From the NCBI GenBank assembly GCA_902799385.1, contig CADCAK010000001.1, positions 96,566 through 160,565 of the forward strand: 64,000 nt of DNA, given 5' to 3'. Positions 5,056 through 49,028 of this stretch are shown here, piece after piece (position 1 is the stretch's first letter; each line of letters starts with the position of its first letter). Position numbers and translations under genes: made by a program. This DNA comes from an uncultured bacterium. Its GTDB lineage: Bacteria; Verrucomicrobiota; Kiritimatiellia; RFP12; UBA1067. The notes below the pieces were generated by a model. That model worked only from the letters and a program-made list of their open reading frames with translations, did no database searches and had not been told where the DNA came from.

Positions 5056-5076
5056 GCGAAGGTGAGGTTTGCCGAG

Positions 5077-10089: not shown

Positions 10090-10090
10090 C

Positions 10091-11824: not shown

Positions 11825-11846
11825 TTCCCGGCGGAGCCCGAGCGGT

Positions 11847-14990: not shown

Positions 14991-15023
14991 GTCCGCATGG
15001 CAATCGCTGATGGAAAGGATGCA

Positions 15024-30179: not shown

Positions 30180-31439
30180 ATGAAAAATATAGGTTATGCA
30201 GTCGTTACCGCCCTTGTGGCTTTTCTTGGGGCTACTTCGTACGGTGCAATAGTGACGGCATCCGACGGCGAGATCGTTCCTGGCGTCTGGAACTCCCGTT
30301 TCGGTGCCGCGAAGCAGTATGCCGACGCCAACCATGTCCCGATGATCGTCTTTTACGGGAAGTCCGACTGCTCGGAGTGTGCGAAGCTCAAGAAGGCGAT
30401 TGAGTCGGATGAGTATATCGCATGGCAGAACGAAAAGCGGTATGTGCAGGTTCTCAGCATCAAGTACTCGGCTCCGGACTGGAGCGATGCAAGGGAGTTC
30501 ATCAAGTCGTCGCCGTTGAATTCCGACAGCCTGCCCATGGTCTGCGTATACTGGAACAAGGAAGACGGCACAGTCATAAGGAAGGCGTTTGTCGGACGCA
30601 GCGGAAGCATGCCTTCGTCAAAGGGAGGCTCGCTCCAGGCCAAGTTCATCGACTCGATCGAGACCATACTTGGCGGCAGCGGCACGCAGGGCGGCGGCGA
30701 CACGCCGACTAAGCCGACCGTGCCGAGCTTCTTCAGCTCTGCAAAGACCATCGCCCTCGCGGCAACCGATGGCGCCGAGTCCTTCGAGGGCCTTGTCCAG
30801 GTGAAGGTCGGAAAGGCCAATTCCAAGACTCACAAGTCCAAGATCTCCGCCAAAGCCCAGCTTCTCGACTTCGGCTCCATGAAATTCTCGACGACCGCAT
30901 TTGACGTGGCGACGACGACGACATTTGTGCTGAACTCCTCGACTGGCGTCTTGACGCTTGAGTTCGACGGTGTCGGCTTTACCGGCACTCTGACGCGGCG
31001 CTCCGGGGTCGCTTTCCAGCTGCTTGGCGACGTGACGTTTGGTGGAGCCATGCCGACGGCAACGAGCAAGTTCTCCCTCCTCGAACCCCCGCAGGAATAC
31101 AGGGGCCGCGATATCTTCACCGAATGGCTGCCGACAGCCCAGGAATTCTCCACTGGAGCGAGGTGGTCGCTGCAAAAGAAGGGTTCGGTCAAATACAACA
31201 GGCGTACGGGCGAATTCGAGAATTCCGCCGCCGATACGAACGCAAGCGGGCTCAAGCTGTCCTACACATCGAGCTCGGGTTACTTCAAGGGCTCCTTCCT
31301 TGTCTATTACAAGGCGTCGGCAACCAAGGCGAGCAAGGTTACAGCCAAGGTCGTCGGGTATGTCGTCGACGGGGTTGGATACGGTACTGCTACAATCCCT
31401 TCGCTGGGAACGTATGACGTGCAGATAACCGCGCCATGA
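30180..31439 (+). CDS. secreted thioredoxin-fold (CSEC) protein with beta-rich repeats and shared C-terminal module
   Basis: AGGAGG SD then ATG 30180, with a signal peptide. MIVFYGKSDCSECAKLKK, with CxxC at 30369-30380. C-terminus SGLKLSYTSSSGYFKGSFLVYY..VDGVGYGTATI is shared with 37771..40335. Confidence 0.7.
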   Translation: MKNIGYAVVTALVAFLGATSYGAIVTASDGEIVPGVWNSRFGAAKQYADANHVPMIVFYGKSDCSECAKLKKAIESDEYIAWQNEKRYVQVLSIKYSAPDWSDAREFIKSSPLNSDSLPMVCVYWNKEDGTVIRKAFVGRSGSMPSSKGGSLQAKFIDSIETILGGSGTQGGGDTPTKPTVPSFFSSAKTIALAATDGAESFEGLVQVKVGKANSKTHKSKISAKAQLLDFGSMKFSTTAFDVATTTTFVLNSSTGVLTLEFDGVGFTGTLTRRSGVAFQLLGDVTFGGAMPTATSKFSLLEPPQEYRGRDIFTEWLPTAQEFSTGARWSLQKKGSVKYNRRTGEFENSAADTNASGLKLSYTSSSGYFKGSFLVYYKASATKASKVTAKVVGYVVDGVGYGTATIPSLGTYDVQITAP

Positions 31440-33217
31440 TGAGAAGACATGTCGCCATATCCCTGATGATTGCATTTGCTGCCGTGGTTCCCGCGGCGGC
31501 AGATGCATTCTTGGGACTTGACGGCAATGTCGGCAATCAGGCCAGTTGGAAGGAATCGTATTTCATTGCCATCGACCCGATTCACTTCTGCATGAGGCAG
31601 CCGGACGGCGCTACGCGGATTTTCCAGCGGGACATCGCCGAGCCGCATGTGCTTTTGGGCGATTCGCCGTGGGTCGGCGAGATTGACGGGGACCGGGTGC
31701 TGATTATGACCGATCCAAAGTCTGCGGCGACGAGGGTCGGTTTTCTCTTCGTCAAGGGCCGGTTGCAGCGCATGCTGCACGGCGATAGGGATATCGAAGT
31801 CCGCGGCAAGTCGGGAGAGATTGACGCAAGGCCCATGGGGACTTACTGGCCGGACGTCAGTTCCGACGCCGTTGCCGCCGCGAACGAGCGCTATGGAATC
31901 CACTGGCGCGACAGGTTCAAGCTGTGGTACAGGAATCCGAATGCGGCCGGCATGCTGCTCGCCGAGTTGGCGCTGCTGTCGTTGGCGTTGATGACGCTGC
32001 GTCGTGCGGGCATGAGGCCGTTGGGGGCGGCGGCATTTCTCATGTGCGCGTTTGGCGTGGCCTGCACTGAGTCGCGCAGCGCCATGCTTGGCCTGCTTTT
32101 TGGGCTCGCATGCATGCTTGCCGTTCATGCTCGGCAGGTGGTCAGCCGCCGGAATGCCGCAATCGCCGCGGTCTTGTGCGTGGTGTTTGCCCTGGCGGTC
32201 TGGATGGGCGGCTTCGCCGACCGATTCACGACCAAGTTGCTTGCCGAAGGGCAGTCCAGCGTAAGCAGGCTGCCAATTTGGGCCGAGGTGCCGAGGATGA
32301 TTGCTGCGGCTCCCTTTGGGTGGGGCATTGGACAGTCTGGCCTAGCGTACATGAACTGGTTTCAGCCTCTGGACCGCGGCCACGCCGTCCTCGGGTTGAT
32401 CAGCACTCATCTGACCTGGCTGGCGGAACTGGGCTGGCCAATGCGCATTGCCTACATGTTTGCCTGGTTCTCCGGCCTTTTGCTGCTGGCTTTCAGCGGC
32501 TTTCGGCGGAAGAACGCCCTGCCGCTCGCGGTCTGGGGCGCTTTTTTCGTTGCGAGCTGCTTCAACACGATCGGCACCGAGATTTCCCTTTGGATAATTC
32601 CGGTTGCCTTGCTGTCCGTTCCGGTTGCGGAGCGTTGCTGGCGGTATCGAAAGTCGTTCTTGGGCGCACTTGCCGCCGGCGCTGTGATTACGGCGGCATT
32701 GTCGGTGGCGCTGACCTGCCTTGGAAGCCGGTCGGACTTTACGATTCGCCGTGAAGGGCGTGGCGTTGTCATCAACGGCGACCATGCGTCCACCTGGGTG
32801 GTGGACGATGGCTATGTGCTAAGCGGGGGGTATTACGGACTTCTTGGCAAGGGCATTCGCGAATGGTTCTTGCGGCATCGCTCGGCTCCGGCGCTTGGCG
32901 TCGTCCAGCGGTTGGAAGACGTTCCGGCCTCGGCGACGCGCGTCGTCGTCGTCGGCAGGGCGGGTGTCTCGCTGCTTGAGAAGCGCGCAGACTTTCTCAA
33001 GGGGCATGGAAACGTGACGAAGGTTATATTCCTTTCGCCGCCATTTGGCTTTGAGGCCTGTGCGGATCTTGCCTGCGGGAACGTCGAAGTGGGGTTTGTG
33101 ACGGGAGAGTTCGCCAACCGCGTGTACGATGGCGGCGCGAAGTCGTGTCCAGAATGGGTCGATGTCGTCCCTGGATGCGCCCTTTATGTCCCAAATTGGC
33201 TTAGGTATGTTTTCTAA
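31436..33217 (+). CDS. Wzy_C (O-antigen ligase / O-oligosaccharyltransferase-like) membrane protein with extra N- and C-terminal soluble domains
   Basis: NPNAAGMLLAELALLSL, TESRSAMLGLLFGLA, SRLPIWAEVPRMIAAAPFGWGIGQSG and STHLTWLAELGW are typical Wzy_C motifs. ATGA overlap with the upstream gene. Confidence 0.6.
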   Translation: MMRRHVAISLMIAFAAVVPAAADAFLGLDGNVGNQASWKESYFIAIDPIHFCMRQPDGATRIFQRDIAEPHVLLGDSPWVGEIDGDRVLIMTDPKSAATRVGFLFVKGRLQRMLHGDRDIEVRGKSGEIDARPMGTYWPDVSSDAVAAANERYGIHWRDRFKLWYRNPNAAGMLLAELALLSLALMTLRRAGMRPLGAAAFLMCAFGVACTESRSAMLGLLFGLACMLAVHARQVVSRRNAAIAAVLCVVFALAVWMGGFADRFTTKLLAEGQSSVSRLPIWAEVPRMIAAAPFGWGIGQSGLAYMNWFQPLDRGHAVLGLISTHLTWLAELGWPMRIAYMFAWFSGLLLLAFSGFRRKNALPLAVWGAFFVASCFNTIGTEISLWIIPVALLSVPVAERCWRYRKSFLGALAAGAVITAALSVALTCLGSRSDFTIRREGRGVVINGDHASTWVVDDGYVLSGGYYGLLGKGIREWFLRHRSAPALGVVQRLEDVPASATRVVVVGRAGVSLLEKRADFLKGHGNVTKVIFLSPPFGFEACADLACGNVEVGFVTGEFANRVYDGGAKSCPEWVDVVPGCALYVPNWLRYVF

Positions 33218-37770: not shown

Positions 37771-40335
37771 ATGGACAAGGGCAAGATCGTCGTTGCGGCA
37801 ATTGCTGCTTCATTTTTATGCGGGTCGGCTTGGTCTGCGGAGGTAAGTTCCGCCCAGGCGGAGACCTTTGCCAATGTATGGTCTTCCGTACGTGCGCGAA
37901 GGATGCCCGGCGAGTGCCGAGAAAGACGCAGGGTGTCCCTTCGTACAATTTGCACCAAGTCCGACAGGCCGCTCTTCCATGTCGCCAATCTGCCCGAGGG
38001 TGGCTTTGTCGTGATGTCGGGCGACACGGCCCTAAGTCCGGTTGTCGCATACTCCGACGTGGGGGCATTTGTGGAGATGGAGGGGAATCCGGTCTATGAG
38101 GCCCTTTTGGCCGATATGTCCGCCCGCATTGCGGCTGTTGATTCGTCGAATCGCCAAACGGCGAAATGGCCAAATGTAGAAAGGATTGCCAAGGCGAAGG
38201 CCATGGCGTCGATAGGGGAGGACGGGCTGGATGGCGTCAGCGACATAAGGGTCGCGCCAATCACCAAGGCGAAATGGTCGCAGCTCACTTTGGGAGGCCG
38301 GAATGCATTCAACATGTATACTCCCAACAACTATTCCTGTGGATGTGTGGCTGCGGCGTTTCTGGCGGTCATGCGCCATTGGTGTGAACCGCGCGGCCCC
38401 GTCGCGCAGTCGATGATGGTGTGCTGGATAGACGGCGTGAGGACGTCGCTTCAGATGATGGGCGGGACCTACGATTGGGCGTCAATGCCATTGGAGTGGT
38501 CGAATGAAGTTACCGATGTCCAGCTCCGGGAAATAGGCAGGGCGGCGTATGATGTGAGCTTGGCCATGCACACGAGCTATTACCAGTCTGGGTCGCAATC
38601 ATGCGGCGAGCTGGGTGCCCAAGCGCTTGCCACTGGATTTGGCTATGCCTCAGTCCGCGTGTACGATACCATAAATGCGGCGTTGGCATCGAAGAACTTG
38701 ATCGACTCGGAAAACTACCGGAATGCCATTCTAGCCAGTCTTGATGCTGGCATGCCGGTTGTTGTCGGCGTGCAGAACGAGTCGGTAGGCCATCAGCTCG
38801 TAATCGACGGCTACGGATTCAGCGCCGGCAATGTGTTGTTCTGTCACCTGAACTGCGGATGGGGAGGGATGTGCGACTTGTGGTACAACGTGATGGCCGG
38901 CGGCGTCATAGACCCATACTGGTTTACGGTAGTCGAAGACGTCGTCTACAACATACATCCAAGGGTTTCCGGCGACGTTATATCGGGACGGGTGCTCGAT
39001 GATAACGGCGTCCCGGTGCCAGGGGTGTCCGTGAAGCTCTCAAAGGGAGATTCGTCGGAAGCGACGACGACGACGGACGCAAAGGGGATCTTCTCTTTCA
39101 GGTTTAGCGGGAAGGGTACATTTACGCTGGAGGCCGCCGATCCTACACTTGGCAGCGCGAAGCGCAGGGTCGTTATTGGGGCAGAAGGCAAGGATCCGGA
39201 ATTCGAGTTTGATGATCTAACCAACAGCAGTTGGCTGTATTCCGACGGTGTCGTCGCCAATCGCTGGGGGCAGGATCTCGTGCTAACCCCCCCGGAGGAC
39301 GGCGGAGACGACTCTTTCGACGAGCAGCCGTTTGATGCCGCAAACGCCGGTGTGTTCGATGGATGCATACTGGCCGATACGGAGATAAAGGGAACCATCC
39401 AAGTCAAGGCTGGCAAGGCAAAAAACGGGGAAAGCAAGGTTACGGCTACGGTAATTCTGGCAGACAGTCCTAAGAAGCTCAGTTTCAAGGGCGTTTTGCG
39501 CACGGACACGGGCTTTGCAACACTTTCCTGTGCGCGCGAAGAGGACATGTCGATTTATCTTGGCAAGGCGCGTTTTTCAGGCGAGATGGCAAATGGGTTT
39601 AGGGTGTCCGGAGTCCGCAATCTCTTCCTTTCGAAGGACAAGGCTGAGGTTAATGCCGCAGAGGGCGTCTTGGCGCCAAAGATCGGCACTCTCAACGTCG
39701 TCGGCGATAATCTTGTCATGGCCGTGAGCATCGGCAAGAAGGGCAAGGTCAAAGTGTCCGGCACATATCGTGGCGTAAAGGTTTCCGCCTCGGTTCAGGC
39801 ATATGTCGGCGATGGCGGATCCGTGCTTGTGCCTGTCGTTGTATCCAAGAAGGGCTCGCTTGCGTTTTTGCTCACTGTAGGCGATTCAACCGCCTCGATT
39901 GCCGGTTTAGGCGACGATATAAAAGTCGGGAAGCAGGGAAGATTGCAATCAGGCGCGGTGTTGCAGCTTCCCGACGGTGCGTTTGCGTCCATATCCGGAC
40001 TTCTTGTCGATTTGTTGCCTGACAACGAGCCGCTGACCGTATCTAATGGCAAGTGGGATACGGCCAAGGCCGCCAAAGTCACGTATAAGAACGGTGTGCT
40101 TGAGATAACGCCGGCGGTCAAGGGGGGAAATGTCGAGAATCCGTCGGGCCTCAAGTTGTCCTACAAGGCCAAGGACGGCTCTTTCAAGGGGTCGTTCAAG
40201 GTTTATGCGGTTGCTTCCGGCAAGTTGCAGAAGTACACTGCAAACGTTGCCGGCGTGCTTGTGGACGGCATAGGCTACGGCACTGCGGAAATCAAGAAGG
40301 TTGCCTCTTGCCCAGTCGTGATATCGGAGCCCTGA
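37771..40335 (+). CDS. secreted C10-family (streptopain-like) cysteine peptidase with Spi-like propeptide, CarboxypepD_reg-like domain, beta-rich repeats and shared C-terminal module
   Basis: KAKWSQL..YTPNNYSCGCVAAAFLAVMRHW, with the catalytic Cys codon at 38344-38346. His motif VGHQLVIDGYGF. LNCGWGG. GRVLDDNGVPVPGVSVKLS. C-terminus SGLKLSYKAKDGSFKGSFKVY..VDGIGYGTAEI. Confidence 0.85.
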   Translation: MDKGKIVVAAIAASFLCGSAWSAEVSSAQAETFANVWSSVRARRMPGECRERRRVSLRTICTKSDRPLFHVANLPEGGFVVMSGDTALSPVVAYSDVGAFVEMEGNPVYEALLADMSARIAAVDSSNRQTAKWPNVERIAKAKAMASIGEDGLDGVSDIRVAPITKAKWSQLTLGGRNAFNMYTPNNYSCGCVAAAFLAVMRHWCEPRGPVAQSMMVCWIDGVRTSLQMMGGTYDWASMPLEWSNEVTDVQLREIGRAAYDVSLAMHTSYYQSGSQSCGELGAQALATGFGYASVRVYDTINAALASKNLIDSENYRNAILASLDAGMPVVVGVQNESVGHQLVIDGYGFSAGNVLFCHLNCGWGGMCDLWYNVMAGGVIDPYWFTVVEDVVYNIHPRVSGDVISGRVLDDNGVPVPGVSVKLSKGDSSEATTTTDAKGIFSFRFSGKGTFTLEAADPTLGSAKRRVVIGAEGKDPEFEFDDLTNSSWLYSDGVVANRWGQDLVLTPPEDGGDDSFDEQPFDAANAGVFDGCILADTEIKGTIQVKAGKAKNGESKVTATVILADSPKKLSFKGVLRTDTGFATLSCAREEDMSIYLGKARFSGEMANGFRVSGVRNLFLSKDKAEVNAAEGVLAPKIGTLNVVGDNLVMAVSIGKKGKVKVSGTYRGVKVSASVQAYVGDGGSVLVPVVVSKKGSLAFLLTVGDSTASIAGLGDDIKVGKQGRLQSGAVLQLPDGAFASISGLLVDLLPDNEPLTVSNGKWDTAKAAKVTYKNGVLEITPAVKGGNVENPSGLKLSYKAKDGSFKGSFKVYAVASGKLQKYTANVAGVLVDGIGYGTAEIKKVASCPVVISEP

Positions 40336-40352: not shown

Positions 40353-41840
40353 ATGTTCAGCCAAGGCAGAATTCGCGTTATAGCGCTTGCTATGTCAGAT
40401 GCCTTGTGCATCGTGGCAATGTGGGCATTTGCCGCGTGGGGGTACTGGGCGCTCGGCGGTTTTCTGCGCACGCATGGCTGGCCGGGCTGTCCATGGGGCG
40501 GATACGAGCTTGCGGAGTATGTGCGGTTCTTCCCGGTCGCCATCGCGTTTGTATGCGTCAACGCCGCGCTTGACCTGTATCACGGCAATTGGATGTATCC
40601 GTCCTCCCCGCAGGGCCCCGTCGAAGAGTTCCGGCGGCTGTGCATTTCGTCGCTCTTGACGCATGCGGGCGCGATTGCCTACATGGCGTTTGCCTACCAG
40701 AGCATGGAAGGCCGCATATCAAGGGCGGTCTGCATCTACGCATGCCTGCTTGCTTCGGTAGGCACCCAATCGTTCCGCAACTGGATGCGGTTCGTCCTGA
40801 AGCGATTGAACATGGGGCAGATACCCGTGGTGCTTGCGGGTGGCGGCGAGGCGGCACATCGTTTTGCCGCAGTCCTTGACGGCGACCCCTACGCTGGCAT
40901 CCGCATCGTCGGGTATTTCGCGGGCACTGAGAGGATTGGACGCAAGCGCCGTCGTCGGGCATGGAATGAACGCGATTTTCAGGACAGGAAGATCACCTAT
41001 CTCGGAACGCTTCGCGACATCGTCCCCCAGGCGAAGAAGCGCGACATCAAGATGCTTGTCGCCTGTCAGGACGACCGTCTTTTCCGGGCGCAGATGGACG
41101 AATTCGCAGCATGGTTCACGTATGTCGTCTACCTGCCGGCGGCGCGGTCGTTCCCCATATTCGGCGCACGCGCCGTAAACTTCGACGGTATTGGCGGACT
41201 TGAGATGGTCAACCAGGGGCGCATGAAGGTGAAGCGAGTTCAGAAACGCGTGATGGACGGTTTCCTTGCGCTTGTGGCCTTTGCGGTGTTTCTTCCGGCG
41301 TTTCTCGTAATCCCAGTGCTGGTCAAGCTTACGAGCCGGGGCCCGGTATTCTACCGGCACAGGCGCCTAGGGCGGGACGGGCGCGAGTTCTTCATCTGGA
41401 AGTTCCGGTCGATGTACGTAGACGCAGACCGCCGGCTCAAGGCGATCTTGGCTTCCAGCCCGTCGGCGGCGAAGGAATGGGAGTCGTCGTTCAAGCTTTC
41501 GCGCGATCCGCGCGTGACGCCTTTCGGCAGGTTGCTCAGAAAGACGTCCCTGGACGAGTTGCCGCAGCTTTTCAACGTCTTTTTCGGCGACATGGCGCTT
41601 GTCGGCCCGCGTCCGATAGTGGACGACGAGGTTCGGCAATACGGCAATTCGTATCGCGTGTTCTCGTCGGTCCGCCCGGGTATTACCGGCCTCTGGCAGG
41701 TGTCGGGGCGAAGTGACACCGGCTATGGGCGCCGCATCGCTCTCGACACGTACTATGTGCTCAACTGGTCGCCTTGGCTCGACCTGTGGATACTCCTGCG
41801 CACGGTGTTCGCCGTGTTGTTCATGCGCGGCGCGCGGTGA
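40353..41840 (+). CDS. polyprenyl-phosphate hexose-1-phosphate transferase (WbaP-type bacterial sugar transferase)
   Basis: 495 aa with N-terminal TM segments. C-terminal DELPQLFNVFFGDMALVGPRP and GITGLWQVSGRSD. Confidence 0.88.
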   Translation: MFSQGRIRVIALAMSDALCIVAMWAFAAWGYWALGGFLRTHGWPGCPWGGYELAEYVRFFPVAIAFVCVNAALDLYHGNWMYPSSPQGPVEEFRRLCISSLLTHAGAIAYMAFAYQSMEGRISRAVCIYACLLASVGTQSFRNWMRFVLKRLNMGQIPVVLAGGGEAAHRFAAVLDGDPYAGIRIVGYFAGTERIGRKRRRRAWNERDFQDRKITYLGTLRDIVPQAKKRDIKMLVACQDDRLFRAQMDEFAAWFTYVVYLPAARSFPIFGARAVNFDGIGGLEMVNQGRMKVKRVQKRVMDGFLALVAFAVFLPAFLVIPVLVKLTSRGPVFYRHRRLGRDGREFFIWKFRSMYVDADRRLKAILASSPSAAKEWESSFKLSRDPRVTPFGRLLRKTSLDELPQLFNVFFGDMALVGPRPIVDDEVRQYGNSYRVFSSVRPGITGLWQVSGRSDTGYGRRIALDTYYVLNWSPWLDLWILLRTVFAVLFMRGAR

Positions 41841-41861: not shown

Positions 41862-42629
41862 ATGCTGGGAAAACTAAAGCAACACCAATTCCTGTTCGAG
41901 GAGCTTGTCAAGCGCGACTTCAAGAAGAAGTACAAGCGCACGGTTCTCGGCATGGGCTGGAGCATGCTGTCGCCGCTTTTGATGTTGCTCGTCATGAAGG
42001 TGGTGTTCGAGCAGTTCTTCGGGCGCACGGTAAACCATTACACGACTTATCTTTTCTGCGGCCTTCTTACGTTCAACTGGTTTTCCGAATCTACGAATGG
42101 AGGCATGAGGTGCCTGTTTGCCAATGCGGGCATATTCACGAAAGTGAACGTCCCGAAGTACCTATTCCTCTTCTCGATCAACATCCAGGTGCTGCTCAAC
42201 TTCGCCTTGACGCTTCTTGTGTTCTTTGTTTTCTGCGCGATCGACCACGTGCCGTTTACGTGGCGATTCCTGTGCCTCGCCTATCCGATCGCCACCTTGC
42301 TGCTCTTCAATCTCGGGATAGGCATGGTGCTTTCGGCGCTTTTCATATTCTTTCGCGACATAGACTATCTTTGGTCTGTCGCTCTGCAGCTCATAATGTA
42401 CGGCTCGGCGATATTCTACACGGTGGACAACCTCCCGCCGAGGGTGCAGCTCGTCTTTTCCGCGAATCCCGTCTATCGGCACGTCGCCTACATTCGCGAG
42501 GTCGTCTTGTCGGGCTCGGTTCCGTCGCTTGAGTCGCACCTTGTCCTTCTTGGCTTTGCAGTAGCCGCTTTCCTGGCCGGTGCGTACATGTACAAGCACT
42601 ACAACACGAAATTCCTGTACTATGTCTGA
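41862..42629 (+). CDS. wzm: ABC-2 type polysaccharide export permease (Wzm/TagG-like)
   Basis: 255 aa. N-terminus QHQFLFEELVKRDFKKKYKRTVLGMGWSMLSPLL is typical of ABC-2 glycan exporters. Six hydrophobic segments. Confidence 0.85.
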   Translation: MLGKLKQHQFLFEELVKRDFKKKYKRTVLGMGWSMLSPLLMLLVMKVVFEQFFGRTVNHYTTYLFCGLLTFNWFSESTNGGMRCLFANAGIFTKVNVPKYLFLFSINIQVLLNFALTLLVFFVFCAIDHVPFTWRFLCLAYPIATLLLFNLGIGMVLSALFIFFRDIDYLWSVALQLIMYGSAIFYTVDNLPPRVQLVFSANPVYRHVAYIREVVLSGSVPSLESHLVLLGFAVAAFLAGAYMYKHYNTKFLYYV

Positions 42630-43527
42630 CAAGAGGCCAATGCTGTCGTGCCGCAACGTCTCCATCCGCTACCAGGTCGGGGACTTCAAGAACATCGGCC
42701 TCAAGGAATGGGCGATGAGGCGACTTGCGGGCAAGTACAGGGTCGTCGACTTCTGGGCGGACAGGGACGTCAGCTTCGAGATATGCGAAGGGGACATGCT
42801 TGGCATAATCGGCGCGAACGGTGCCGGGAAGTCAACCCTGCTGAAGGCGGTTTCCGGCATAATGGAGCCGACCAGGGGCAGGATAGTGCGAAACGGGAAG
42901 GTGTCTGCGCTTCTTGAACTGGGGAGCGGGTTCGACGGCGACCTGACGGTGAAGGAGAACGCCTACCTTCGCGGCGCGATGCTCGGCTATACTCGCAAGT
43001 TCATGGACAGGACATACCCGTATATAATCGACTTTTCGGAGCTCAAGGCGTTCGAGGACCGTCCGTTCAAGCAGCTGTCTTCGGGAATGAAGTCGCGTCT
43101 TGCGTTCGCCATCGCCTCGCTCGTGAAGCCCGAGATACTGATTCTCGACGAGGTGCTTGCGGTCGGCGACGGCGCGTTTCGCGCCAAGAGCGAGGCAAAG
43201 ATGCGCGAGATCATCAAGGGCGGCGCGACGACGATTCTTGTCTCGCATTCGCTTGTCCAGGTTCGCGCCATGTGCAACAGGGTCCTTTGGCTAGACAAAG
43301 GTCGGCAGATTGCGTTCACGGACGACGTGGCGGGAGTATGCGACTGCTACGAGGAGTATCTCAAGAACCGTGGGGCGGGGCCCGTCTACGACCCAGCGGC
43401 CGCGAAGGCCCGCATCAACGCGCGGGCGGCGGAGAAGGCCCGCCGCGAGGCCGAGGCGCGGCAGATGAAGGCAGATGCGGACAAGCTGAGGAAGGTTCGT
43501 GAGATATTGAGGGGGGTGAAGCCATGA
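42622..43527 (+). CDS. wzt: polysaccharide ABC transporter ATP-binding protein (Wzt/TagH-like), short form without carbohydrate-binding domain
   Basis: Walker A GANGAGKST, signature LSSGMKSRL, Walker B ILILDE. Start ATG 42622 overlaps the wzm stop by 8 nt. Ends in a charged helical tail. Confidence 0.85.
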   Translation: MSDKRPMLSCRNVSIRYQVGDFKNIGLKEWAMRRLAGKYRVVDFWADRDVSFEICEGDMLGIIGANGAGKSTLLKAVSGIMEPTRGRIVRNGKVSALLELGSGFDGDLTVKENAYLRGAMLGYTRKFMDRTYPYIIDFSELKAFEDRPFKQLSSGMKSRLAFAIASLVKPEILILDEVLAVGDGAFRAKSEAKMREIIKGGATTILVSHSLVQVRAMCNRVLWLDKGRQIAFTDDVAGVCDCYEEYLKNRGAGPVYDPAAAKARINARAAEKARREAEARQMKADADKLRKVREILRGVKP

Positions 43528-46481
43528 CCGCGGGACTCCCGGAAATCAGGCCCGCATTTGCAACGCGGAACATCCCCGTCGCCTTTGCGACGGACGAGAA
43601 CTATTTGCCGTATGTCGCCGTGGCGATAAACTCGTTGGTTGCGAATGCAAGGGGCGGCAACCTTGATGTGCTTGTATTCCATGCTGGAATTGGCGAGACG
43701 GCAAGGGGTTGGCTTCTTAAGGAAGTGCGAAAGGGCGCGTGCATTTCGGTGCGCTTCGTGGACATTGGTGATGTGGTAAGGGAAACGGCCGCAGGGTGCT
43801 TTGTCCAGAAAAACTACCTTTCGGTGACCACGCTGTTCCGGCTTTTCATCCCCAGGGTGCTCGTCGCCTACGAAAGGCTCGTGTATCTTGACGTGGACTT
43901 GGTTGTGTGCCAGGACATTTCCGAGCTGTATGCCACTGACCTTGCCGGATGCCTGTTTGGAGCGGTTCGCGACTATGGGGCGGCGAACCTCATGCGCAGT
44001 AGTCCGAGCCATCGTGAATTTGCCGAGAAGCATGGGTTCTCCGAATGGGACGAGTATGTCAATGCCGGCGTGCTGCTCATGGATCTCGCCGCACTTAGGG
44101 CTGCGGATCTTCTCGACCGGCTTCTTCCCGTCGCGGTTGATGCGGCGGGGTTCTCCTGCGACCAGGATGCGCTGAACATCATTTGCAGGGGGCGCATATG
44201 CCATCTCGATCCGAAGTGGAACGTGCTGGCGTTGCCGGCAAGCTATGAAGCGCAAGTGCGGGAGGCGGGCGGACAATTGGGCATCGTCCATTTTGTGAGT
44301 GGGGAGAAGCCCTGGAAGTGCCCGAGTCATCTTTGCGCGCATCTCTGGTGGAGCTATGCGGCGGACCTTGATTTTGCAGTATCCCTATGGCGCGGGATCT
44401 TCGACGGCGGAAATGATGCCGTAAAGTGCGGCGAAGGGATCGCCGTGACGGTCGTCGTCCCCGTGTACAACGCGGAGCGATATCTATTCGGAACGCTTGC
44501 CTCGCTGTCGGCGCAGCCCCTCCGCAACATCGAGGTAATCTGCGTCGACGACGGTTCGATCGATGGCTCGCGCGCCATTGTCAAGACCATGCAGGGACTT
44601 GATCCCCGCGTCAAGTTATTGAGTCAATGTCGTCAGGGCCCCGGGACGGCGCGCAATGCGGCATTGGACATTGCCGCAGGGGAGTATGTATACTTTCTGG
44701 ATGCCGACGATCGGATTGTTCCGGGGGACGCGCTCTTGCGTGCATACGAACAGGCCAGGCGGAATGGCCTGGACATGCTGCTTGCGGCATCGTCCACGAT
44801 TGCCGAAGACGGGCATGTCTTGCAGACAGATGTTGGACTTAACCGCGAGGTCCTTCCGGGCGAGGAGGTCTTTGCGCCGGACGCTTTGGGGGCGGAGCTG
44901 TTTTTGTGCGTACCGCTGGGGCCGTGCGGCAAGCTCTACCGACGGGCATTCCTGGAGGAAAACGAGCTCAGGTTTCCAGCGTTGAAGCGCTCCGAGGACT
45001 TCCCGATGGTTGGGTTGGCGCTGGCGCTTTCGTCCCGGATTGGAGTGCTTGCGCAATCTGTTTATGAACGTCGCATAGGCGTGTCTTCGTCGTTGGAATC
45101 GACTAAGGACGAAACCCCGCTTATTTTCTTCGAGGCGGAACAATTGCTGCGCGATTCCTTGAAGAGGCACAAATTGTGGAGTCGGTTCAAGACGGCCGTC
45201 TACTCGGCCTTTGTTTCCCGGCTCGTGTACAACCTTCAGGCAGTGCGGCGATATTCAAGCTTCAGGACGATAATCGCCAAATACCGCAAAGAGTGCCAGG
45301 AATGGATTCGCTGGAAGCATGTAGCCCTGCCTGAACGGTTTGCGGACAAAGTGCAATTGGTCAAAGACATAAGCCAAGGCATGGACGATGACGACCAAAT
45401 TGCATTGTTTGTCAAATTGAAAGAGGCGGCGGCCGCAAACGCGTCTGACGCCAAGAAGAGCATACGGTTTGACGATAAAAGGCTCGTTGCATTGGCTGCG
45501 ACGGTCGAGAAGGTGCGCGCCGCGCGCGACGATGCGCTTCGGATGCGCGACGAGGCCCTTGCGACTGTCGAAAAGGTGAAGACCGGACGCGACGATGCGC
45601 TTCGGATGCGCGACGAGGCCCTTGCGACTGTCGAAAAGGTGAAGGCCGGACGCGACGATGCGCTTCGGATGCGCGACAACGCCCTTGCCACGGTGGAGAA
45701 GATGAAATCCGCCCGCGACGACGCGCTTCGGATGCGTGACGAGGCTCTTGCGACCGTCGGAAAGGTGAAGGTCGGTCGCGACGACGCGCTTCGGATGCGC
45801 GACAACGCCCTTGCCACGGTAGAGAAGATGAAATCCGCCCGCGACGACGCGCTTCGGATGCGCGACGAGGCTCTCGCGACCGTCGAAAAGGTGAAGGCCG
45901 GTCGTGATGACGCGCTTCGGATACGCGACAACGCCCTTGCCACGGTGGAGAAGACGAAGTCCGCCCGCGACGACGCGCTTCGGATGCGCGACGGGGCTCT
46001 TGCGACTGTCGAAAAGGTGAAGGCTGGACGCGACGACGCGCTTCGGATGCGCGACGAGGCCCTTGCGACTGTCGAAAAGGTGAAGGTTGGTCGCGACGAT
46101 GCGCTTCGGATGCGCGACAACGCCCTTGCCACGGTGGAGAAGATGAAATCCGCCCGCGACGACGCGCTTCGGATGCGCGACGGGGCTCTTGCGACCGTCG
46201 AAAAGGTGAAGGCCGGTCGCGACGATGCGCTTCGGATGCGCGACAACGCCCTGGCGACGCTGGAGAAGGTCAAGGCGTCAAGGGATGCGCTGCAGAGTTC
46301 GTTGGATTCTATGAAAGTCACGCTGAAGAACGTCATCCGTTCGCGAGACGACGCCGTGAGGGCGAGAGACGCGGCGCGGCTGGGCATGCGGGAGGCAGGC
46401 AATGCCATGCGCGGCGCGTCCCTGTCGTTGGAGGCAATAAGGCAAGTCGTCGAGAATGCAGATGTGCAGGTCAAAAGATAG
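43524..46481 (+). CDS. bifunctional glycosyltransferase (GT8 + GT2) with long C-terminal tandem-repeat coiled coil
   Basis: GT8: IPVAFATDENYLPYV, YLDVDLVVCQD, NAGVLLMDL. GT2: VTVVVPVYNAERYL..VICVDDGSIDGS. The C-terminal ~365 aa are heptad-like and Ala/Arg/Asp-rich. ATGA overlap with wzt. Confidence 0.85.
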   Translation: MTAGLPEIRPAFATRNIPVAFATDENYLPYVAVAINSLVANARGGNLDVLVFHAGIGETARGWLLKEVRKGACISVRFVDIGDVVRETAAGCFVQKNYLSVTTLFRLFIPRVLVAYERLVYLDVDLVVCQDISELYATDLAGCLFGAVRDYGAANLMRSSPSHREFAEKHGFSEWDEYVNAGVLLMDLAALRAADLLDRLLPVAVDAAGFSCDQDALNIICRGRICHLDPKWNVLALPASYEAQVREAGGQLGIVHFVSGEKPWKCPSHLCAHLWWSYAADLDFAVSLWRGIFDGGNDAVKCGEGIAVTVVVPVYNAERYLFGTLASLSAQPLRNIEVICVDDGSIDGSRAIVKTMQGLDPRVKLLSQCRQGPGTARNAALDIAAGEYVYFLDADDRIVPGDALLRAYEQARRNGLDMLLAASSTIAEDGHVLQTDVGLNREVLPGEEVFAPDALGAELFLCVPLGPCGKLYRRAFLEENELRFPALKRSEDFPMVGLALALSSRIGVLAQSVYERRIGVSSSLESTKDETPLIFFEAEQLLRDSLKRHKLWSRFKTAVYSAFVSRLVYNLQAVRRYSSFRTIIAKYRKECQEWIRWKHVALPERFADKVQLVKDISQGMDDDDQIALFVKLKEAAAANASDAKKSIRFDDKRLVALAATVEKVRAARDDALRMRDEALATVEKVKTGRDDALRMRDEALATVEKVKAGRDDALRMRDNALATVEKMKSARDDALRMRDEALATVGKVKVGRDDALRMRDNALATVEKMKSARDDALRMRDEALATVEKVKAGRDDALRIRDNALATVEKTKSARDDALRMRDGALATVEKVKAGRDDALRMRDEALATVEKVKVGRDDALRMRDNALATVEKMKSARDDALRMRDGALATVEKVKAGRDDALRMRDNALATLEKVKASRDALQSSLDSMKVTLKNVIRSRDDAVRARDAARLGMREAGNAMRGASLSLEAIRQVVENADVQVKR
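45525..46280 (+). repeat. 12 in-frame tandem copies of a 63-bp (21-aa) unit RDDALRMRD(E/N/G)ALATVEK(V/M)K(A/S)(G/A)
   Basis: Unit starts verified at 45525 and 45588, and the array end at 46280 (RDALQ follows at 46281). Units are near-identical at the DNA level. Degenerate copies flank the array (45483-45524 and ~46340-46400). Confidence 0.95.
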
Positions 46482-46490
46482 GGGGATGCC

Positions 46491-49028
46491 GTGACGCCAA
46501 AGGTTTCCATAGTCATTCCATGCTACAACATGAGCGGTTTCATCCGCGACTGTCTCGAATCGCTTGGAAGGCAGACGCTTTCGGAGTTTGAGGCCATCTG
46601 CGTTGACGACGGTTCGACGGACAGCACGCCCGACATCATTCGCGAATATGCGGGCAGGGACTCTCGCATAGTTCTGATTTCCCAGAAGAACGAGGGCGTC
46701 TTCGCTGCGCGCAATAGGGCCATGGCCAGGGCTAGGGGAGAGTACCTATGCTTCCTCGACCCCGACGACTGGTATCCCGAAGACGGCACTTTGTCCAAGA
46801 TGTACAAGGCCGCCGTCGAGAACGACGCCGACATTTGCGGCGGCGGATGGTCGCGGCATTTCCCCGACGGGAAAGTCGTTGACAGGTTCGAGGGGAACAT
46901 GGCGGGCCTGAACGCATTCGCGAAATGCGGCTTCGTGCCGTATTCGGACTATCAGTTCGATCTGGGATACCAGAGGTTCCTTTACCGCCGTTCGCTGATC
47001 CGCAGCCGGAACATAGAATTTCCCCCATACAAGCGCTACCAGGACCCGCCGTTCTTCGTCAAGGCAATGGCGGCGGCCGGCAGGTTCTACGGACTGGACT
47101 TTACGACCTACTGCTACAGAGTCGGGCACAAGTCCGTGGACTGGGCGTCCGACGGCTACCGCAAGCTCAAGGACTACATGAGGGGGCTGGCCGAGAACCT
47201 CCGCACGGCAAGGGAACATGGATTGGACGTCTTGCGCCGCACGACGTACGAAAGGTGCTGCGGCAACTACTTCTGGCAGACTGCCGGATCTGCCATCGCC
47301 GGGAACCTTGACGTATTCAACGTGTTTCTCTCGATGTTCGACGACGCCGTGGACGCCGTGCATGCGCTGGCAAAGGGGTTTGCGAACCATTCAAGGGACA
47401 TTGCCGGCGTAATCGAGAGGTCCGGCTGGATAAAGCCCATAGTCCCGCGCGACGTAAAGGTGATTGGCATGCACTATTTCCATCTCACCCCGGGAGGCGT
47501 GCAGCGCGTTATCGCAATACAGGTGCGGCAATTCCTCGAGATGGGATACAAGGTCAGGCTTTTCGTGGAGGAGCCCGTCACGGGCGAATGCTTCAAGGTG
47601 CCGGAAGAAGTGGAGGTCGTCAAGTTCCCCGAGACGTTTGGAAAGAACGGCCTGTCGCCAGCGGCGCGCGTCCAGGCGGTTGCGGAGGTGTTGCGCGCCC
47701 ATCCGGTCGACGTGTTCTATTCGCATTGCCATGTCTGTCCGATGATGTTCTGGGACATCCTGACGGTGAAGGCCGGCCTTGGCATCCCATATGTCCTGCA
47801 TTTCCATTCCATGTTTTCCGCCATGCTGCACGGTGCGTGGGAGACTTCCCAGGAAAGGTTTCTCGAAGCCCCGGCCCAGCACAGGTTTTGCGATCTCGTC
47901 ATCTCGCTCAGCCGCGTGGACTGTGCATACGAGATGTTCAACGGCGCCCGGTCCGTCTACCTGCCCAATCCGGTCGACGACGTCCTAAAGCGCGCTTTGC
48001 CTTCCGGGGCCGACGGCGAACGGCGCAGGGTAATGTGGATTGGCCGCATAGACGAGAACAAGCAGCCGGCAGACGCGCTCAAGGTCTTCGCAAAGGTGCA
48101 TGAAGCCCTTCCCGACGTGCGTTTTCGCATGGTCGGTGGCGGGGCAAAGTGGCTGGAGGATCGCATATCGCGGGACATCAAGGCCCTTGGCCTGGAGTCC
48201 TGCGTGGAGCGGTTGGGGTCAAAGCTCGACGTTTATCCAGACTATGCCGCGTCGTCCGTATATCTCTCGACGTCCCGCATAGAGGGGTTCCCCATGTGCT
48301 CTCTGGAGGCGCTTTGCCATGGGCTACCGATAGTCGCCTACCGGTTGCCGCAGGCGGAACTGTACAGGGACAATCCTTCCGTGGTGCAGGTCCGGCAGGG
48401 TGACGTTGCGTCTGCTGCAGCCGCAATTGTGCGGCTGCTTGAATCGCCCGACTTGCCGAGGCTTCGCGAGGAGGCCAGGATGTCGGTGCAGAAGTTCGTG
48501 GACTACGATTTCAAGGGTGCCTGGCACCGGATAATGGAGATGCTTCAGTCGAGTTGCAAGAGCGCAGCCTACGTGCCTACCGAAGAGGACTATGGCCTTA
48601 TGCGCGAGTCGCTGTTCGCGGGCATCGACGCCATGCGCGGACGCGTGGGCAGCTATCGTCGTCAGCTTGCGGAGCGCGACAGGCAACTGCTTTCCGAGAA
48701 AGAAGTCTCGGCAAAGGCCTCTGCCGCAGCCGCCGACCTGCAGAAGTGCCTGGCCGAGACGAGGGTGGCCCTGGACGACGCTAGGAAGAAGGGGGCTTCC
48801 GACTTGCGCGGGAAGTCGGCTCTGGAGGCTGCGCTTAGGCGGGAGACAGGGGAAGTCGCCGCGCTTAAGGCTTCCGAGGCGTACCGCGTGGGCATGGCCG
48901 TGACGTGGCCCGCCAGAAAGGTCTGGGGCGGGGTCAAGTGCCTCAGGGAAAACGGGCCCGCATACACCGTTAAGCACTTCCTGGGCAAGGTCGCCCGTCG
49001 TCTCGGCTTCAGAAGGGTGAAGTGGTGA
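46491..49028 (+). CDS. bifunctional glycosyltransferase (GT2 + GT4/group 1) with C-terminal coiled coil and amphipathic tail
   Basis: VSIVIPCYNMSGFIRDCLESL..AICVDDGSTD is GT2. VMWIGRIDENKQ..STSRIEGFPMCSLEALCHGLPIVAY is GT4 with the EX7E region. GTG start behind AGGGGG. Confidence 0.85.
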   Translation: MTPKVSIVIPCYNMSGFIRDCLESLGRQTLSEFEAICVDDGSTDSTPDIIREYAGRDSRIVLISQKNEGVFAARNRAMARARGEYLCFLDPDDWYPEDGTLSKMYKAAVENDADICGGGWSRHFPDGKVVDRFEGNMAGLNAFAKCGFVPYSDYQFDLGYQRFLYRRSLIRSRNIEFPPYKRYQDPPFFVKAMAAAGRFYGLDFTTYCYRVGHKSVDWASDGYRKLKDYMRGLAENLRTAREHGLDVLRRTTYERCCGNYFWQTAGSAIAGNLDVFNVFLSMFDDAVDAVHALAKGFANHSRDIAGVIERSGWIKPIVPRDVKVIGMHYFHLTPGGVQRVIAIQVRQFLEMGYKVRLFVEEPVTGECFKVPEEVEVVKFPETFGKNGLSPAARVQAVAEVLRAHPVDVFYSHCHVCPMMFWDILTVKAGLGIPYVLHFHSMFSAMLHGAWETSQERFLEAPAQHRFCDLVISLSRVDCAYEMFNGARSVYLPNPVDDVLKRALPSGADGERRRVMWIGRIDENKQPADALKVFAKVHEALPDVRFRMVGGGAKWLEDRISRDIKALGLESCVERLGSKLDVYPDYAASSVYLSTSRIEGFPMCSLEALCHGLPIVAYRLPQAELYRDNPSVVQVRQGDVASAAAAIVRLLESPDLPRLREEARMSVQKFVDYDFKGAWHRIMEMLQSSCKSAAYVPTEEDYGLMRESLFAGIDAMRGRVGSYRRQLAERDRQLLSEKEVSAKASAAAADLQKCLAETRVALDDARKKGASDLRGKSALEAALRRETGEVAALKASEAYRVGMAVTWPARKVWGGVKCLRENGPAYTVKHFLGKVARRLGFRRVKW

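Follow-up and report, generated by a model that had tools for sequence, protein, structure and literature searches.

The question raised by this locus is whether the number of repeats in a gene can set the length of an enzyme and, through it, the length of a glycan. The stretch analysed (hereafter, the window) comprises 64,000 nucleotides of an uncultured bacterium of the Kiritimatiellia (assembly GCA_902799385.1, contig CADCAK010000001.1, positions 96,566 to 160,565 of the forward strand). Its subject is a gene for an enzyme that joins two glycosyltransferase (GT) domains, of the families GT8 and GT2, to a long C-terminal tail built around a tandem repeat array. A previous inspection of the letters alone (the sequence-only reading) had proposed that this array is a variable molecular ruler. 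In general terms, the answer has two parts: (i) the tail is very probably a helical stalk of the coiled-coil type whose length varies, within its family, with the number of units; and (ii) a variable coiled-coil spacer that sets the reach of the enzyme on its glycan is the best overall explanation, with an even chance of being correct. A ruler function is plausible as an inference. The target gene and the parts of its tail can be listed as follows:

43524..46481, + strand: gene for the GT8-GT2-coiled-coil protein of 985 amino acids (aa), with its stop codon at 46479-46481 (list of open reading frames (ORFs), translation and Pfam)
45384..46478, + strand: C-terminal stalk of 365 residues (621-985), a predicted heptad-periodic, proline-free helix (AlphaFold2 and hydrophobicity periodicity)
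45462..45524, + strand: degenerate upstream unit IRFDDKRLVALAATVEKVRAA (in-register translation; flanking copies have 62-72% DNA identity)
45525..46280, + strand: array of 12 tandem 63-bp (21-aa) units of two types, the E/G-type (..EKVKAG) and the N-type (..EKMKSA)
46281..46406, + strand: two degenerate downstream units (in-register translation; again 62-72% DNA identity)
46422..46478, + strand: C-terminal cap LSLEAIRQVVENADVQVKR, with an ending of the hxxhxx[IV][VC] type (from the C-termini of 98 homologues)

Tandem Repeats Finder places the array at 45497-46276, with 12.4 copies of a 63-bp period (score 965, 80% matches, 0 indels), and a second, independent repeat search gives a spacing of exactly 63 bp with 13 copies in register. 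Read in frame from 45525, the DNA encodes 12 x 21 aa of the form RDDALRMRD(E/N/G)ALATVEK(V/M)K.. and ends at 46280. The unit, RDDALRMRDEALATVEKVKAG, holds three heptads, and the array contributes 252 residues to the 365-residue C-terminal helix of the 985-aa enzyme. The twelve in-frame units described by the sequence-only reading, as well as the degenerate copies on both flanks (one upstream and two downstream), are therefore present. Its description of the units as near-identical holds in part: pairwise DNA differences range from 0 (units 3 and 10) to 18 of 63 nt, and the two types, which follow each other in the order E E N E N E N G E N G N, differ from one another by 10-18 of 63 nt. Similarly, the suggested 126-bp super-unit agrees with an offset of two units (mean of 8.1 differences, compared with 12.4 for adjacent units), but this offset ranks second, and a segmental duplication of seven units (441 bp, mean of 5.0 differences) is the clearer and strongest higher-order signal.

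Among the variable columns of the units, 16 out of 26 lie at codon position 3, and the pairwise codon differences comprise 315 synonymous versus 201 non-synonymous ones. This third-position bias and the excess of synonymous differences show that the protein sequence of the unit is under purifying selection. An antisense ORF of 426 aa (45236..46516, minus strand) spans the whole array, and its wobble positions are those of the + frame, so that codon-position statistics are unable to separate the two frames. This shadow ORF was judged to be non-coding: the + frame continues a conserved GT8-GT2 enzyme, and homologues carry equivalent tails.

Repeat arrays in short-read metagenome assemblies, such as the source of this window, can have their length and unit order altered by collapse or expansion, and the array does contain two identical units (3 and 10). 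Nevertheless, no exact repeat inside it exceeds 86 bp, which is shorter than the reads and k-mers in common use, and hence the array is resolvable by ordinary 150-bp reads or large k-mers. Furthermore, the identical 985-aa protein (P0001) is recorded on three public contigs, including one of 169 kb and one of 63 kb (the metagenome sample behind a contig with this protein is labelled STEW19-1), the array keeps the reading frame perfectly, and the differences among units are concentrated at third codon positions. Misassembly of the array, a danger that the sequence-only reading had itself pointed out, is possible but unlikely, and the prospect that it accounts for the array length or the unit order is very faint indeed.

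Regarding the structure of the tail, AlphaFold2 with an alignment predicts residues 622-984 to be helical with three short breaks; run on the tail alone, with no alignment, it gives two helices, 2-127 and 132-364 (126 and 233 residues), with a mean pLDDT of 82. The hydrophobicity power of the tail has its peak, with a value of 263, at a 3.5-residue period, whereas 1000 shuffled versions did not exceed 83, and no proline occurs over the 365 residues. The earlier view that roughly the last 365 residues form one long, coiled-coil-like helix is in keeping with these results, and the tail is predicted to be helical rather than disordered. The models fold back on themselves at points that differ by run (residues 833-849 versus 748-751); a real hairpin was rejected, the fold-back being treated as a single-chain modelling artefact of the kind expected for an oligomeric coiled coil. 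Taking 0.1485 nm per residue of a fully extended helix, the whole tail would measure ~54 nm, the array ~37 nm and one unit ~3.1 nm. No meaningful family was returned for the tail by sequence searches in Pfam, NCBIfam and the PDB.

The helix could also serve as something other than a coiled coil, namely, (i) a single stable alpha-helix (SAH) acting as a spacer; or (ii) an armadillo-like alpha-solenoid with a 42-aa repeat. Charged residues make up about 44% of the array and include Asp-Arg and Arg-Glu pairs at i/i+4; on the other hand, 42% are Ala, Leu, Val or Met and lie in a heptad stripe, unlike in SAH domains. As for the solenoid, phmmer yields weak, in-phase matches to designed armadillo repeats in the PDB (E 1e-4), whose 42-aa period equals that of the alternating E/N pair. 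But the posterior accuracy of that alignment is low (0.45) and compensating gaps are required, two E-type units without an N-type partner would break a 42-aa solenoid, and the long helices predicted by AlphaFold2 are uninterrupted, with no helix-turn-helix solenoid. The armadillo matches were consequently rejected as a period-matching artefact. In addition, 14-aa units occur in orthologues, whose lengths change by one 14- or 21-aa unit at a time, and repeat periods across the family point to heptad packing. A tail that is not a coiled coil is, for these reasons, highly improbable.

It is in the comparison with homologues that the coiled coil finds its strongest argument. Tandem-repeat tails are present in 40 of the 86 homologues with a GT8+GT2 core, and in 37 of these 40 the period is 14, 21, 28, 35 or 49 residues, always a multiple of seven; the three exceptions (periods of 25, 46 and 46) are each 7n+4, which matches a heptad stutter. 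The units are mostly unrelated in sequence between homologues, as illustrated by QVKQIATLREANAG and LQESQKSRGELFTK (both of 14 aa), AEREAMKSEL.AAK..LA.AQKRRGEVW (28 aa) and ERAEAKLNAEKAKVEAVNAKLARRDEWLAAEKKKA (35 aa). A 21-aa unit of several lineages (RDAALKERDSL...) resembles that of the target in phase, with 7/21 residues identical. Since the units are mostly unrelated and yet nearly all their periods are multiples of seven, long repeat stalks arose repeatedly and independently under a heptad constraint. Tail length across the family (members with extra domains excluded) ranges from 44 to ~490 aa.

Copy-number variation was compared within protein clusters of 90% identity. In the cluster of P0006, whose core is 72% identical to that of the target and whose unit has 14 aa, proteins of 784, 798, 812, 826, 854 and 980 aa correspond to 5, 6, 7, 8, 10 and 19 units, respectively, on 640-residue cores that are 99.1-100% identical; the 854-aa allele dominates this cluster (~39 contigs). 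Seven further clusters contain indels of 21, 28/56, 35/70/105 or 50 aa, all of them confined to the tail, whereas in a control cluster with a non-repetitive tail the ten full-length members all have 723 aa (an eleventh entry is a 448-aa fragment). The 19-unit allele is identical over 2943 nt of DNA in two independent samples and assemblies, and its flanks differ from those of the 10-unit allele at 8 of 1900 nt (99.6% identity). As the longest exact repeats in orthologous arrays measure 39-117 bp, or 161 bp for the 19-unit allele, an unambiguous assembly is possible for most orthologue alleles. Because unit number differs in exact unit steps among near-identical strains, the stalk is a genetically length-adjustable rod. 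The sequence-only reading had anticipated changes in 21-residue steps and had advised a comparison of copy number across strains: whole-unit steps, including steps of 21 aa, do occur in near-identical orthologues (5-19 units in one cluster; ±21, ±28 and ±35 aa in others), but no variant of the target array was found, its own cluster being a single sequence.

Such a rod does not need to be a ruler. Coiled coils in glycan assembly proteins also scaffold complexes (PMC11231755). The tail could then simply di- or trimerise the enzyme or recruit partners, with its length not being read out and its variation neutral. The very wide range of tail lengths in the family suggests a weak constraint on absolute length, and the locus has neither a terminator domain nor a carbohydrate-binding module, in agreement with this possibility. 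Against it, a stalk of 200-490 residues goes far beyond what oligomerisation needs, long repeat stalks evolved many times independently from unrelated units, the unit sequences are under purifying selection, and one allele (854 aa) predominates in its cluster instead of lengths being evenly spread. Moreover, the equivalent variation in Helicobacter pylori alters which O-chains become modified (PMC2583950). A purely scaffolding role thus appears rather unlikely.

In order to consider what the rod might measure, it is necessary to turn to what it carries. The remainder of this cytoplasmic enzyme, its catalytic head, consists of:

43578..44318, + strand: GT8 domain (retaining GT-A), residues 19-265 (Pfam PF01501, 1e-42; invariant D123 and D125)
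44448..44792, + strand: core of the GT2 domain (inverting GT-A), residues 309-423 (Pfam PF00535, 4e-28; invariant D342/D343 and D393/D395/D396)
44793..45383, + strand: remaining conserved core (end of the GT2 fold and helical linker domain, residues ~424-620), ending in the family motif DDDDQIALFVKLKEAAA

In PDB sequence searches, the GT8 domain matches LgtC (1g9r) and the GT8 module of WbbM (6u4b, residues 295-528), and the GT8 half of the model superposes on LgtC with a TM-score of 0.77, normalised to the target (Foldseek). The GT2 domain matches CgT/GalT1 (5hea), TarS (5tz8) and K4 chondroitin polymerase (2z86); by PDB sequence search and Foldseek together, this half resembles CgT, TarS, TarP and RmlT. 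Residues ~424-620 are conserved in 63 homologues and align with TarS residues 309-566 (its catalytic part and linker). The aspartates listed for both domains are invariant across the same 63 homologues, so that two GT-A modules with intact Asp-rich, DxD-type metal/nucleotide motifs, a feature of dual-GT-A polymerases, lie in one polypeptide. With the 63-sequence alignment, AlphaFold2 models residues 1 to ~630 with pLDDT mostly >90 (about 88-98 for residues ~424-630), and the top whole-model Foldseek matches are the bifunctional two-GT-A polymerases K4CP (E 9e-21), WbbM (1.4e-19, rank 2) and LARGE1 (1.5e-18). A retaining and an inverting GT in one polypeptide are the usual make-up of alternating disaccharide polymerases and, for this reason, it is reasonable to describe the modelled head as polymerase-like. 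Taken together, Pfam, AlphaFold2 and the periodicity analysis agree with the order of parts given by the sequence-only reading: a GT8-GT2 catalytic head, a long heptad-periodic helical tail and a short terminal segment.

To judge by its neighbours, the gene is part of a polyprenol-linked glycan operon of the Wzm/Wzt (ABC-transporter-dependent) kind. The relevant features of its surroundings are:

31436..33217, + strand: Wzy_C / O-antigen-ligase-like membrane protein (Pfam PF04932, 6e-12), also found upstream in the orthologous locus L067
40353..41840, + strand: initiating polyprenyl-phosphate glycosyl-phosphotransferase of the WbaP/EPS_sugtrans type (Pfam Bac_transf, 1e-63)
41862..42629, + strand: wzm, ABC-2 permease (Pfam PF01061)
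42622..43527, + strand: wzt, ABC transporter ATPase of 301 aa (Pfam ABC_tran; NCBIfam TagH/Wzt-like; public gene call)
43360..43524, + strand: charged, helical-type C-terminal extension of Wzt, ~55 aa (..AAKARINARAAEKARREAEARQMKADADKLRKVREILRGVKP), from sequence comparison of loci
46491..49028, + strand: neighbouring GT2-GT4 enzyme of 845 aa (Pfam), with a ~110-aa C-terminal coiled coil followed by an anchor module
48873..49025, + strand: that module, a basic/aromatic C-terminal sequence SEAYRVGMAVTWPARKVWGGVKCLRENGPAYTVKHFLGKVARRLGFRRVKW (motif search)

The product of 40353..41840 scores 346.8 bits against NCBIfam TIGR03025 (cut-off of 295.6), and the start of wzt is given as in public records, although its ORF could begin at 42580. 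The phosphoglycosyltransferase, wzm, wzt, the target (fourth) and GT2-GT4 genes form a co-directional block, and the gene after GT2-GT4 is convergent. The ATG of the target overlaps the stop codon of wzt as ATGA; the position directly after wzm-wzt and the coupling to wzt, both claimed beforehand, are real, with ABC2_membrane and ABC_tran domains upstream. Regarding Wzt itself, no Wzt_C match is found in Pfam, that is, the carbohydrate-binding module is absent and the ATPase domain is followed only by the ~55 charged residues of the extension. No methyltransferase or kinase was found in the operon, and the target protein yields only GT8 and GT2 in Pfam and NCBIfam. Neither a signal peptide nor a hydrophobic segment of transmembrane length was detected in the target, in GT2-GT4 or in Wzt. 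The Wzy_C-like protein is likely responsible for an acceptor-ligation step. The closest genomic relatives are rumen and gut metagenome-assembled genomes of Kiritimatiellae, with 40-54% identity, and the window itself probably stems from a rumen member of this group.

If the rod is to hold the head at a distance from the membrane, its far end has to be attached. The hxxhxx[IV][VC].. ending, which in the target reads LEAIRQVVENADVQVKR, is common to most family members without a membrane anchor, and the target belongs to this anchor-less majority class, with a short cap and no hydrophobic or basic-aromatic module. Two other endings can be distinguished among the 98 homologues: (i) the module S.AYRVGM.VTWPARK.WGG.KCLRENG..YT.KH..GK...W, which follows the coiled coil in 14 of them (by a motif scan that missed a few further degenerate copies), including the orthologues P0003, P0004 and P0006, where it is present in cis; and (ii) a transmembrane helix, in two homologues, among them P0012. 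Members anchored in cis show the order of head, stalk and membrane-type anchor, an arrangement also found in WbdD and in FutA/FutB of H. pylori. On the GT2-GT4 neighbour, the module contains 12 Lys/Arg versus 2 Asp/Glu and 7 aromatics, with an amphipathic moment of 0.4-0.47, a composition that suggests a putative peripheral membrane anchor or docking module. The anchor module and the Wzt extension had no meaningful family match in Pfam, NCBIfam or PDB sequence searches. As separate observations, the module also occurs after a short coiled coil on many different glycosyltransferases (L071, L072, L073, L074, L075 and L076; P0078, P0083 and P0093), and degenerate copies are found in homologues of the Clostridia-type group.

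The type of stalk end is related to the form of Wzt. In all six loci with a free cap (the window, L002, L069, L070, L073 and L074), Wzt has a charged, helical extension of 50-80 residues ending in ..KVRxIL.., and in the three loci with an anchor in cis (L067, L072 and L076) Wzt is short (252-253 aa) and has no extension. The pairing of stalk cap and Wzt extension provides a new lead as to where the stalk may dock. A second candidate partner is the neighbouring enzyme: in L070, the coiled coil of GT2-GT4 (13078-15750) holds two copies of a 28-aa unit (E 8e-23, 48-67% identity) that forms a 12-copy array in the adjacent GT8-GT2 protein (10001-13060), which hints at gene conversion or at hetero-oligomer compatibility. 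A convincing shared unit was found only in L070; in the window, the similarity between the target tail and the coiled coil of its neighbour is weak (81 aa aligned at 30%, with E 0.002 when composition is left uncorrected). These patterns suggest an attachment in trans for the far end of the stalk, with Wzt, the neighbour that bears the anchor, or the two together as its partner. A seemingly direct link, a fusion of Wzt and GT8-GT2 in P0068 (1092 aa), was rejected as interaction evidence, the junction looking like a frameshifted read-through of the Wzt extension. The C-termini of P0068 and of the 899-aa protein of L069 (13270-15969) look like a beta-sandwich domain, similar to a carbohydrate-binding module, and not like a coiled coil.

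The proposed mechanism can be summarised as follows. The rod, presumably a homo-oligomeric coiled coil, would keep the GT8-GT2 head a fixed distance (up to ~54 nm, in steps of ~3.1 nm per unit) away from its attachment point on the membrane-bound assembly and export machinery. In some orthologues, attachment would take place in cis, through the basic/aromatic module or the transmembrane helix; in the target, it would probably take place in trans, with the cap binding the helical extension of Wzt, the coiled coil of the GT2-GT4 neighbour or both. As growth of the lipid-linked glycan starts at the membrane, the spacing would decide which chain lengths, or which zones of the chain, come within reach of the head. 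Units gained or lost through slippage or unequal recombination (with exact repeats of up to 86 bp as substrate) would then shift glycan length or decoration stepwise, following a logic shown for FutA/FutB of H. pylori and for WbdD/WbbB. The chance that stalk length is read out as glycan length or as a decoration zone is estimated at even or slightly below it.

The nearest functional precedent would be the heptad-repeat 'enzymatic ruler' FutA/FutB of H. pylori, overlooked by the sequence-only reading, which had chosen WbdD and WbbB instead. These alpha1,3/4-fucosyltransferases comprise a catalytic domain, 1-17 tandem heptads and amphipathic C-terminal helices (Nilsson et al., 2006, as reported in PMC2583950). 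Within and between strains, the number of heptads changes by recombination or slippage; it correlates with how large the fucosylated O-chains are, and the repeats are thought to form a dimerising coiled coil (PMC2583950). Likewise, the target has a GT catalytic part followed by tandem heptad-based repeats (of 21 aa), the orthologues with an anchor in cis (P0003, P0004 and P0006) share the order of the parts, and these orthologues show the same kind of strain-level copy-number variation. The differences are also clear: (i) FutA/FutB have one GT10 domain, versus the two domains GT8+GT2 here, with no relationship in sequence or fold; (ii) their unit is a 7-aa DD/NLRV/INY, versus 14-49 aa in the present family (21 in the target); (iii) their stalks have <= ~120 aa, versus up to ~490 aa in the GT8+GT2 family; and (iv) they carry membrane-anchoring C-terminal helices, whereas the target has no anchor in cis. 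Besides, the O-antigen of H. pylori is exported by the Wzk flippase and not by Wzm/Wzt.

WbdD, from the E. coli O9a and Klebsiella O3 and O5 systems, has a catalytic head, an extended coiled coil whose length sets chain length and a C-terminal region through which it makes contact with the membrane and brings in a partner GT (PMC11231755). It shares with the target the ABC-transporter-dependent pathway and the order of head and coiled coil. However, its head is a methyltransferase/kinase terminator instead of GT8+GT2, and it requires the carbohydrate-binding module of Wzt, which is missing from the Wzt of the window. No report of the WbdD coiled coil as a tandem-repeat array, or as variable in copy number, was found in the literature searched, and neither WbdD nor WbbB chains are among the PDB sequence matches of the target core or tail. 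WbbB (Klebsiella O12 / Raoultella terrigena) and Klebsiella O7 ORF6 come closer in that GT modules and a long coiled coil are joined in one polypeptide beside wzm-wzt (PMC11231755). In these proteins, the coiled coil lies between the terminator and the polymerase modules, whereas in the target nothing catalytic lies beyond it; moreover, the target lacks GT99, GT137 and methyltransferase domains, and its Wzt has no carbohydrate-binding module. Because two defining features of the WbdD/WbbB type were looked for and are missing, namely a recognised terminating domain and a Wzt carbohydrate-binding module, the target is not filed under that type, and the original analogy does not hold at these two points.

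Nonetheless, for Klebsiella and E. coli, an extended coiled coil is described as the mark by which terminator-dependent assembly is recognised; there, the terminator acts at the distal end and the carbohydrate-binding module of Wzt reads the cap (PMC11231755). The target could then be a classical ruler of this kind: the distal GT8-GT2 enzyme would add a chain-ending cap, or start a second block, and the GT2-GT4 neighbour would be the polymerase. The short coiled coil and the anchor module of that neighbour would place it near the membrane, the GT2 half of the target resembles the polymer-decorating enzymes TarS, TarP and RmlT, and a distal enzyme is, as a rule, a terminator (PMC11231755). But Wzt lacks the module by which the cap is read in all known terminator systems (PMC11231755), and the head is laid out with two GT-A domains, like alternating co-polymerases. 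It is also the most conserved enzyme of these loci and always lies beside wzt, while the other GTs vary. The fold of the head and its conservation beside wzt thus favour a polymerase, and the rule on distal enzymes (PMC11231755) favours a capping role. All in all, the terminator reading is judged unlikely.

Two further comparisons concern the head and the transporter. K4CP (E. coli K4 chondroitin polymerase) and LARGE1 also have two tandem GT-A domains, and LARGE1 likewise pairs a GT8 domain with a second GT; their identity to the target is, however, only 13-16%, with other domain order and partners and no C-terminal repeat stalk. To our knowledge, in ABC-transporter-dependent pathways, chain-length control with neither a terminator nor a carbohydrate-binding module is understood only for Klebsiella O2a, by transporter-to-enzyme stoichiometry. 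The WbbM/O2a system resembles the present one in its two-GT-module polymerase with one GT8 (WbbM was compared in sequence through its GT8 part) and in a Wzt without a carbohydrate-binding module. In O2a, chain length depends on the stoichiometry between transporter and biosynthesis complex, and extension is coupled to export in an obligatory manner (PMC11231755). The O1/O2a systems are contrasted with those that have extended coiled coils (PMC11231755), a literature search found no coiled coil in WbbM, and here a long coiled coil is present and Wzt has a helical extension instead of the module. The target system mixes a module-less transporter, a WbbM-like dual GT with GT8 and a very long coiled coil, and it has no recognisable terminator.

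Several points weigh against the reading of the stalk as a variable spacer that sets glycan reach. With regard to structure, the pLDDT of the tail is only moderate (42-79, AlphaFold2 with alignment), and the heptad core is unorthodox: Arg is central in two of three heptads (Arg/Arg/Val), flanked by Ala/Ala/Val and Leu/Leu/Lys, hydrophobic residues lie at d/e-like positions, and most units contain Gly. With regard to variation, no copy-number variant of this exact array was found, the 90% protein cluster of the target being one sequence; the repeat unit CGCGACGAYGCGCTTCGGATGCGCGAC, when JGI metagenome contigs were scanned for it, gave 0 matches; and the length polymorphism could be neutral. With regard to mechanism, a head that acts as a polymerase gives no evident reason for distance from the membrane to limit chain length, and, as there is no terminator-type domain and no carbohydrate-binding module in Wzt, the mechanism of distal terminator and cap recognition is not simply transferable. 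Finally, membrane binding by the anchor module and contact between cap and Wzt are deduced from sequence features and from a correlation over nine loci (Fisher exact p = 0.012 for Wzt extension versus free cap) that are not phylogenetically independent.

A variant of the spacer reading, free of a terminator, would work as a 'caliper'. The cap would dock on the Wzt extension, which takes the place of the carbohydrate-binding module, the rod, rigid and of heritable, adjustable length, would tether the polymerase head to the exporter, and the distance between head and exporter, and not a chemical cap, would set chain length or the hand-over to export; recombination between units would tune the surface-glycan length of rumen Kiritimatiellae stepwise from strain to strain. 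This version is considered improbable.

What makes the family relevant is that a transporter without the module, as in O2a, occurs together with a dual GT resembling a polymerase and with a long coiled coil of the type regarded as the hallmark of terminator systems. With 5-19 units on cores of 99-100% identity, and with stalks of ~60 to ~490 residues in different lineages, nature offers an allelic series on which the ruler hypothesis can be put to a direct test. If it were true, the copy-number-variable enzymatic ruler, so far known from the fucosyltransferases of H. pylori, would extend to another phylum, to other GT families and to Wzm/Wzt pathways. It would also imply a heritable variation of surface-glycan length in gut and rumen bacteria, with a bearing on their interactions with phages, protists and hosts. 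No report of tandem-repeat, copy-number-variable coiled coils in enzymes of the Wzm/Wzt pathway was found in the literature searched, whose coverage was incomplete.

Other observations were made at the related loci. Some of them contain two tandem GT8-GT2 paralogues (L071 12163-15408, L072 7768-9993 and L075 10803-14033), and the paralogue of L075 has its own 14-aa repeats (SLEATKNDLAKK) before the anchor module. Unrelated genes of 510-600 aa interrupt the glycan operons at differing positions (L005 8394-9986, L076 5456-7246 and L002 7050-8582); two of these inserts share an N-terminal sequence with a ..RPRRFGKS.. motif, and in L076 the insert separates wzm from wzt. These genes may represent mobile or selfish elements.

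The flanks of L070 (19359-23060) and L074 (15047-18436) contain phosphonate-type genes (for a PEP mutase–CTP-transferase fusion, a TPP-dependent decarboxylase and an Fe-alcohol dehydrogenase) as well as a 60KD_IMP/Glyphos_transf fusion; in L075 (1-2087), only the decarboxylase and the 60KD_IMP/Glyphos_transf fusion are present. MBOAT and AlgX pairs are common in these clusters and, together with the phosphonate-type genes, suggest heavily decorated glycans. In L073, the locus of P0009, which also contains glf, a standalone gene of the O-methyltransferase type (Dimerisation + Methyltransf_2; 4542-5516) lies directly upstream of wzm and could encode a chain-end modifier in that lineage.

As for the rest of the window, no tRNA or Rfam element was found in it. 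In two different loci, the window (37771-40335) and L075 (17036-18784, minus strand), a large Peptidase_C10 (streptopain-like) protein, with an Inhibitor_I69 prodomain and carboxypeptidase-regulatory-like domains, directly adjoins the glycan cluster. Positions 1-2000, without any rRNA, tRNA or Rfam match, have a GC content of 0.48, compared with ~0.60-0.65 over most of the window, and a strong positive GC skew.

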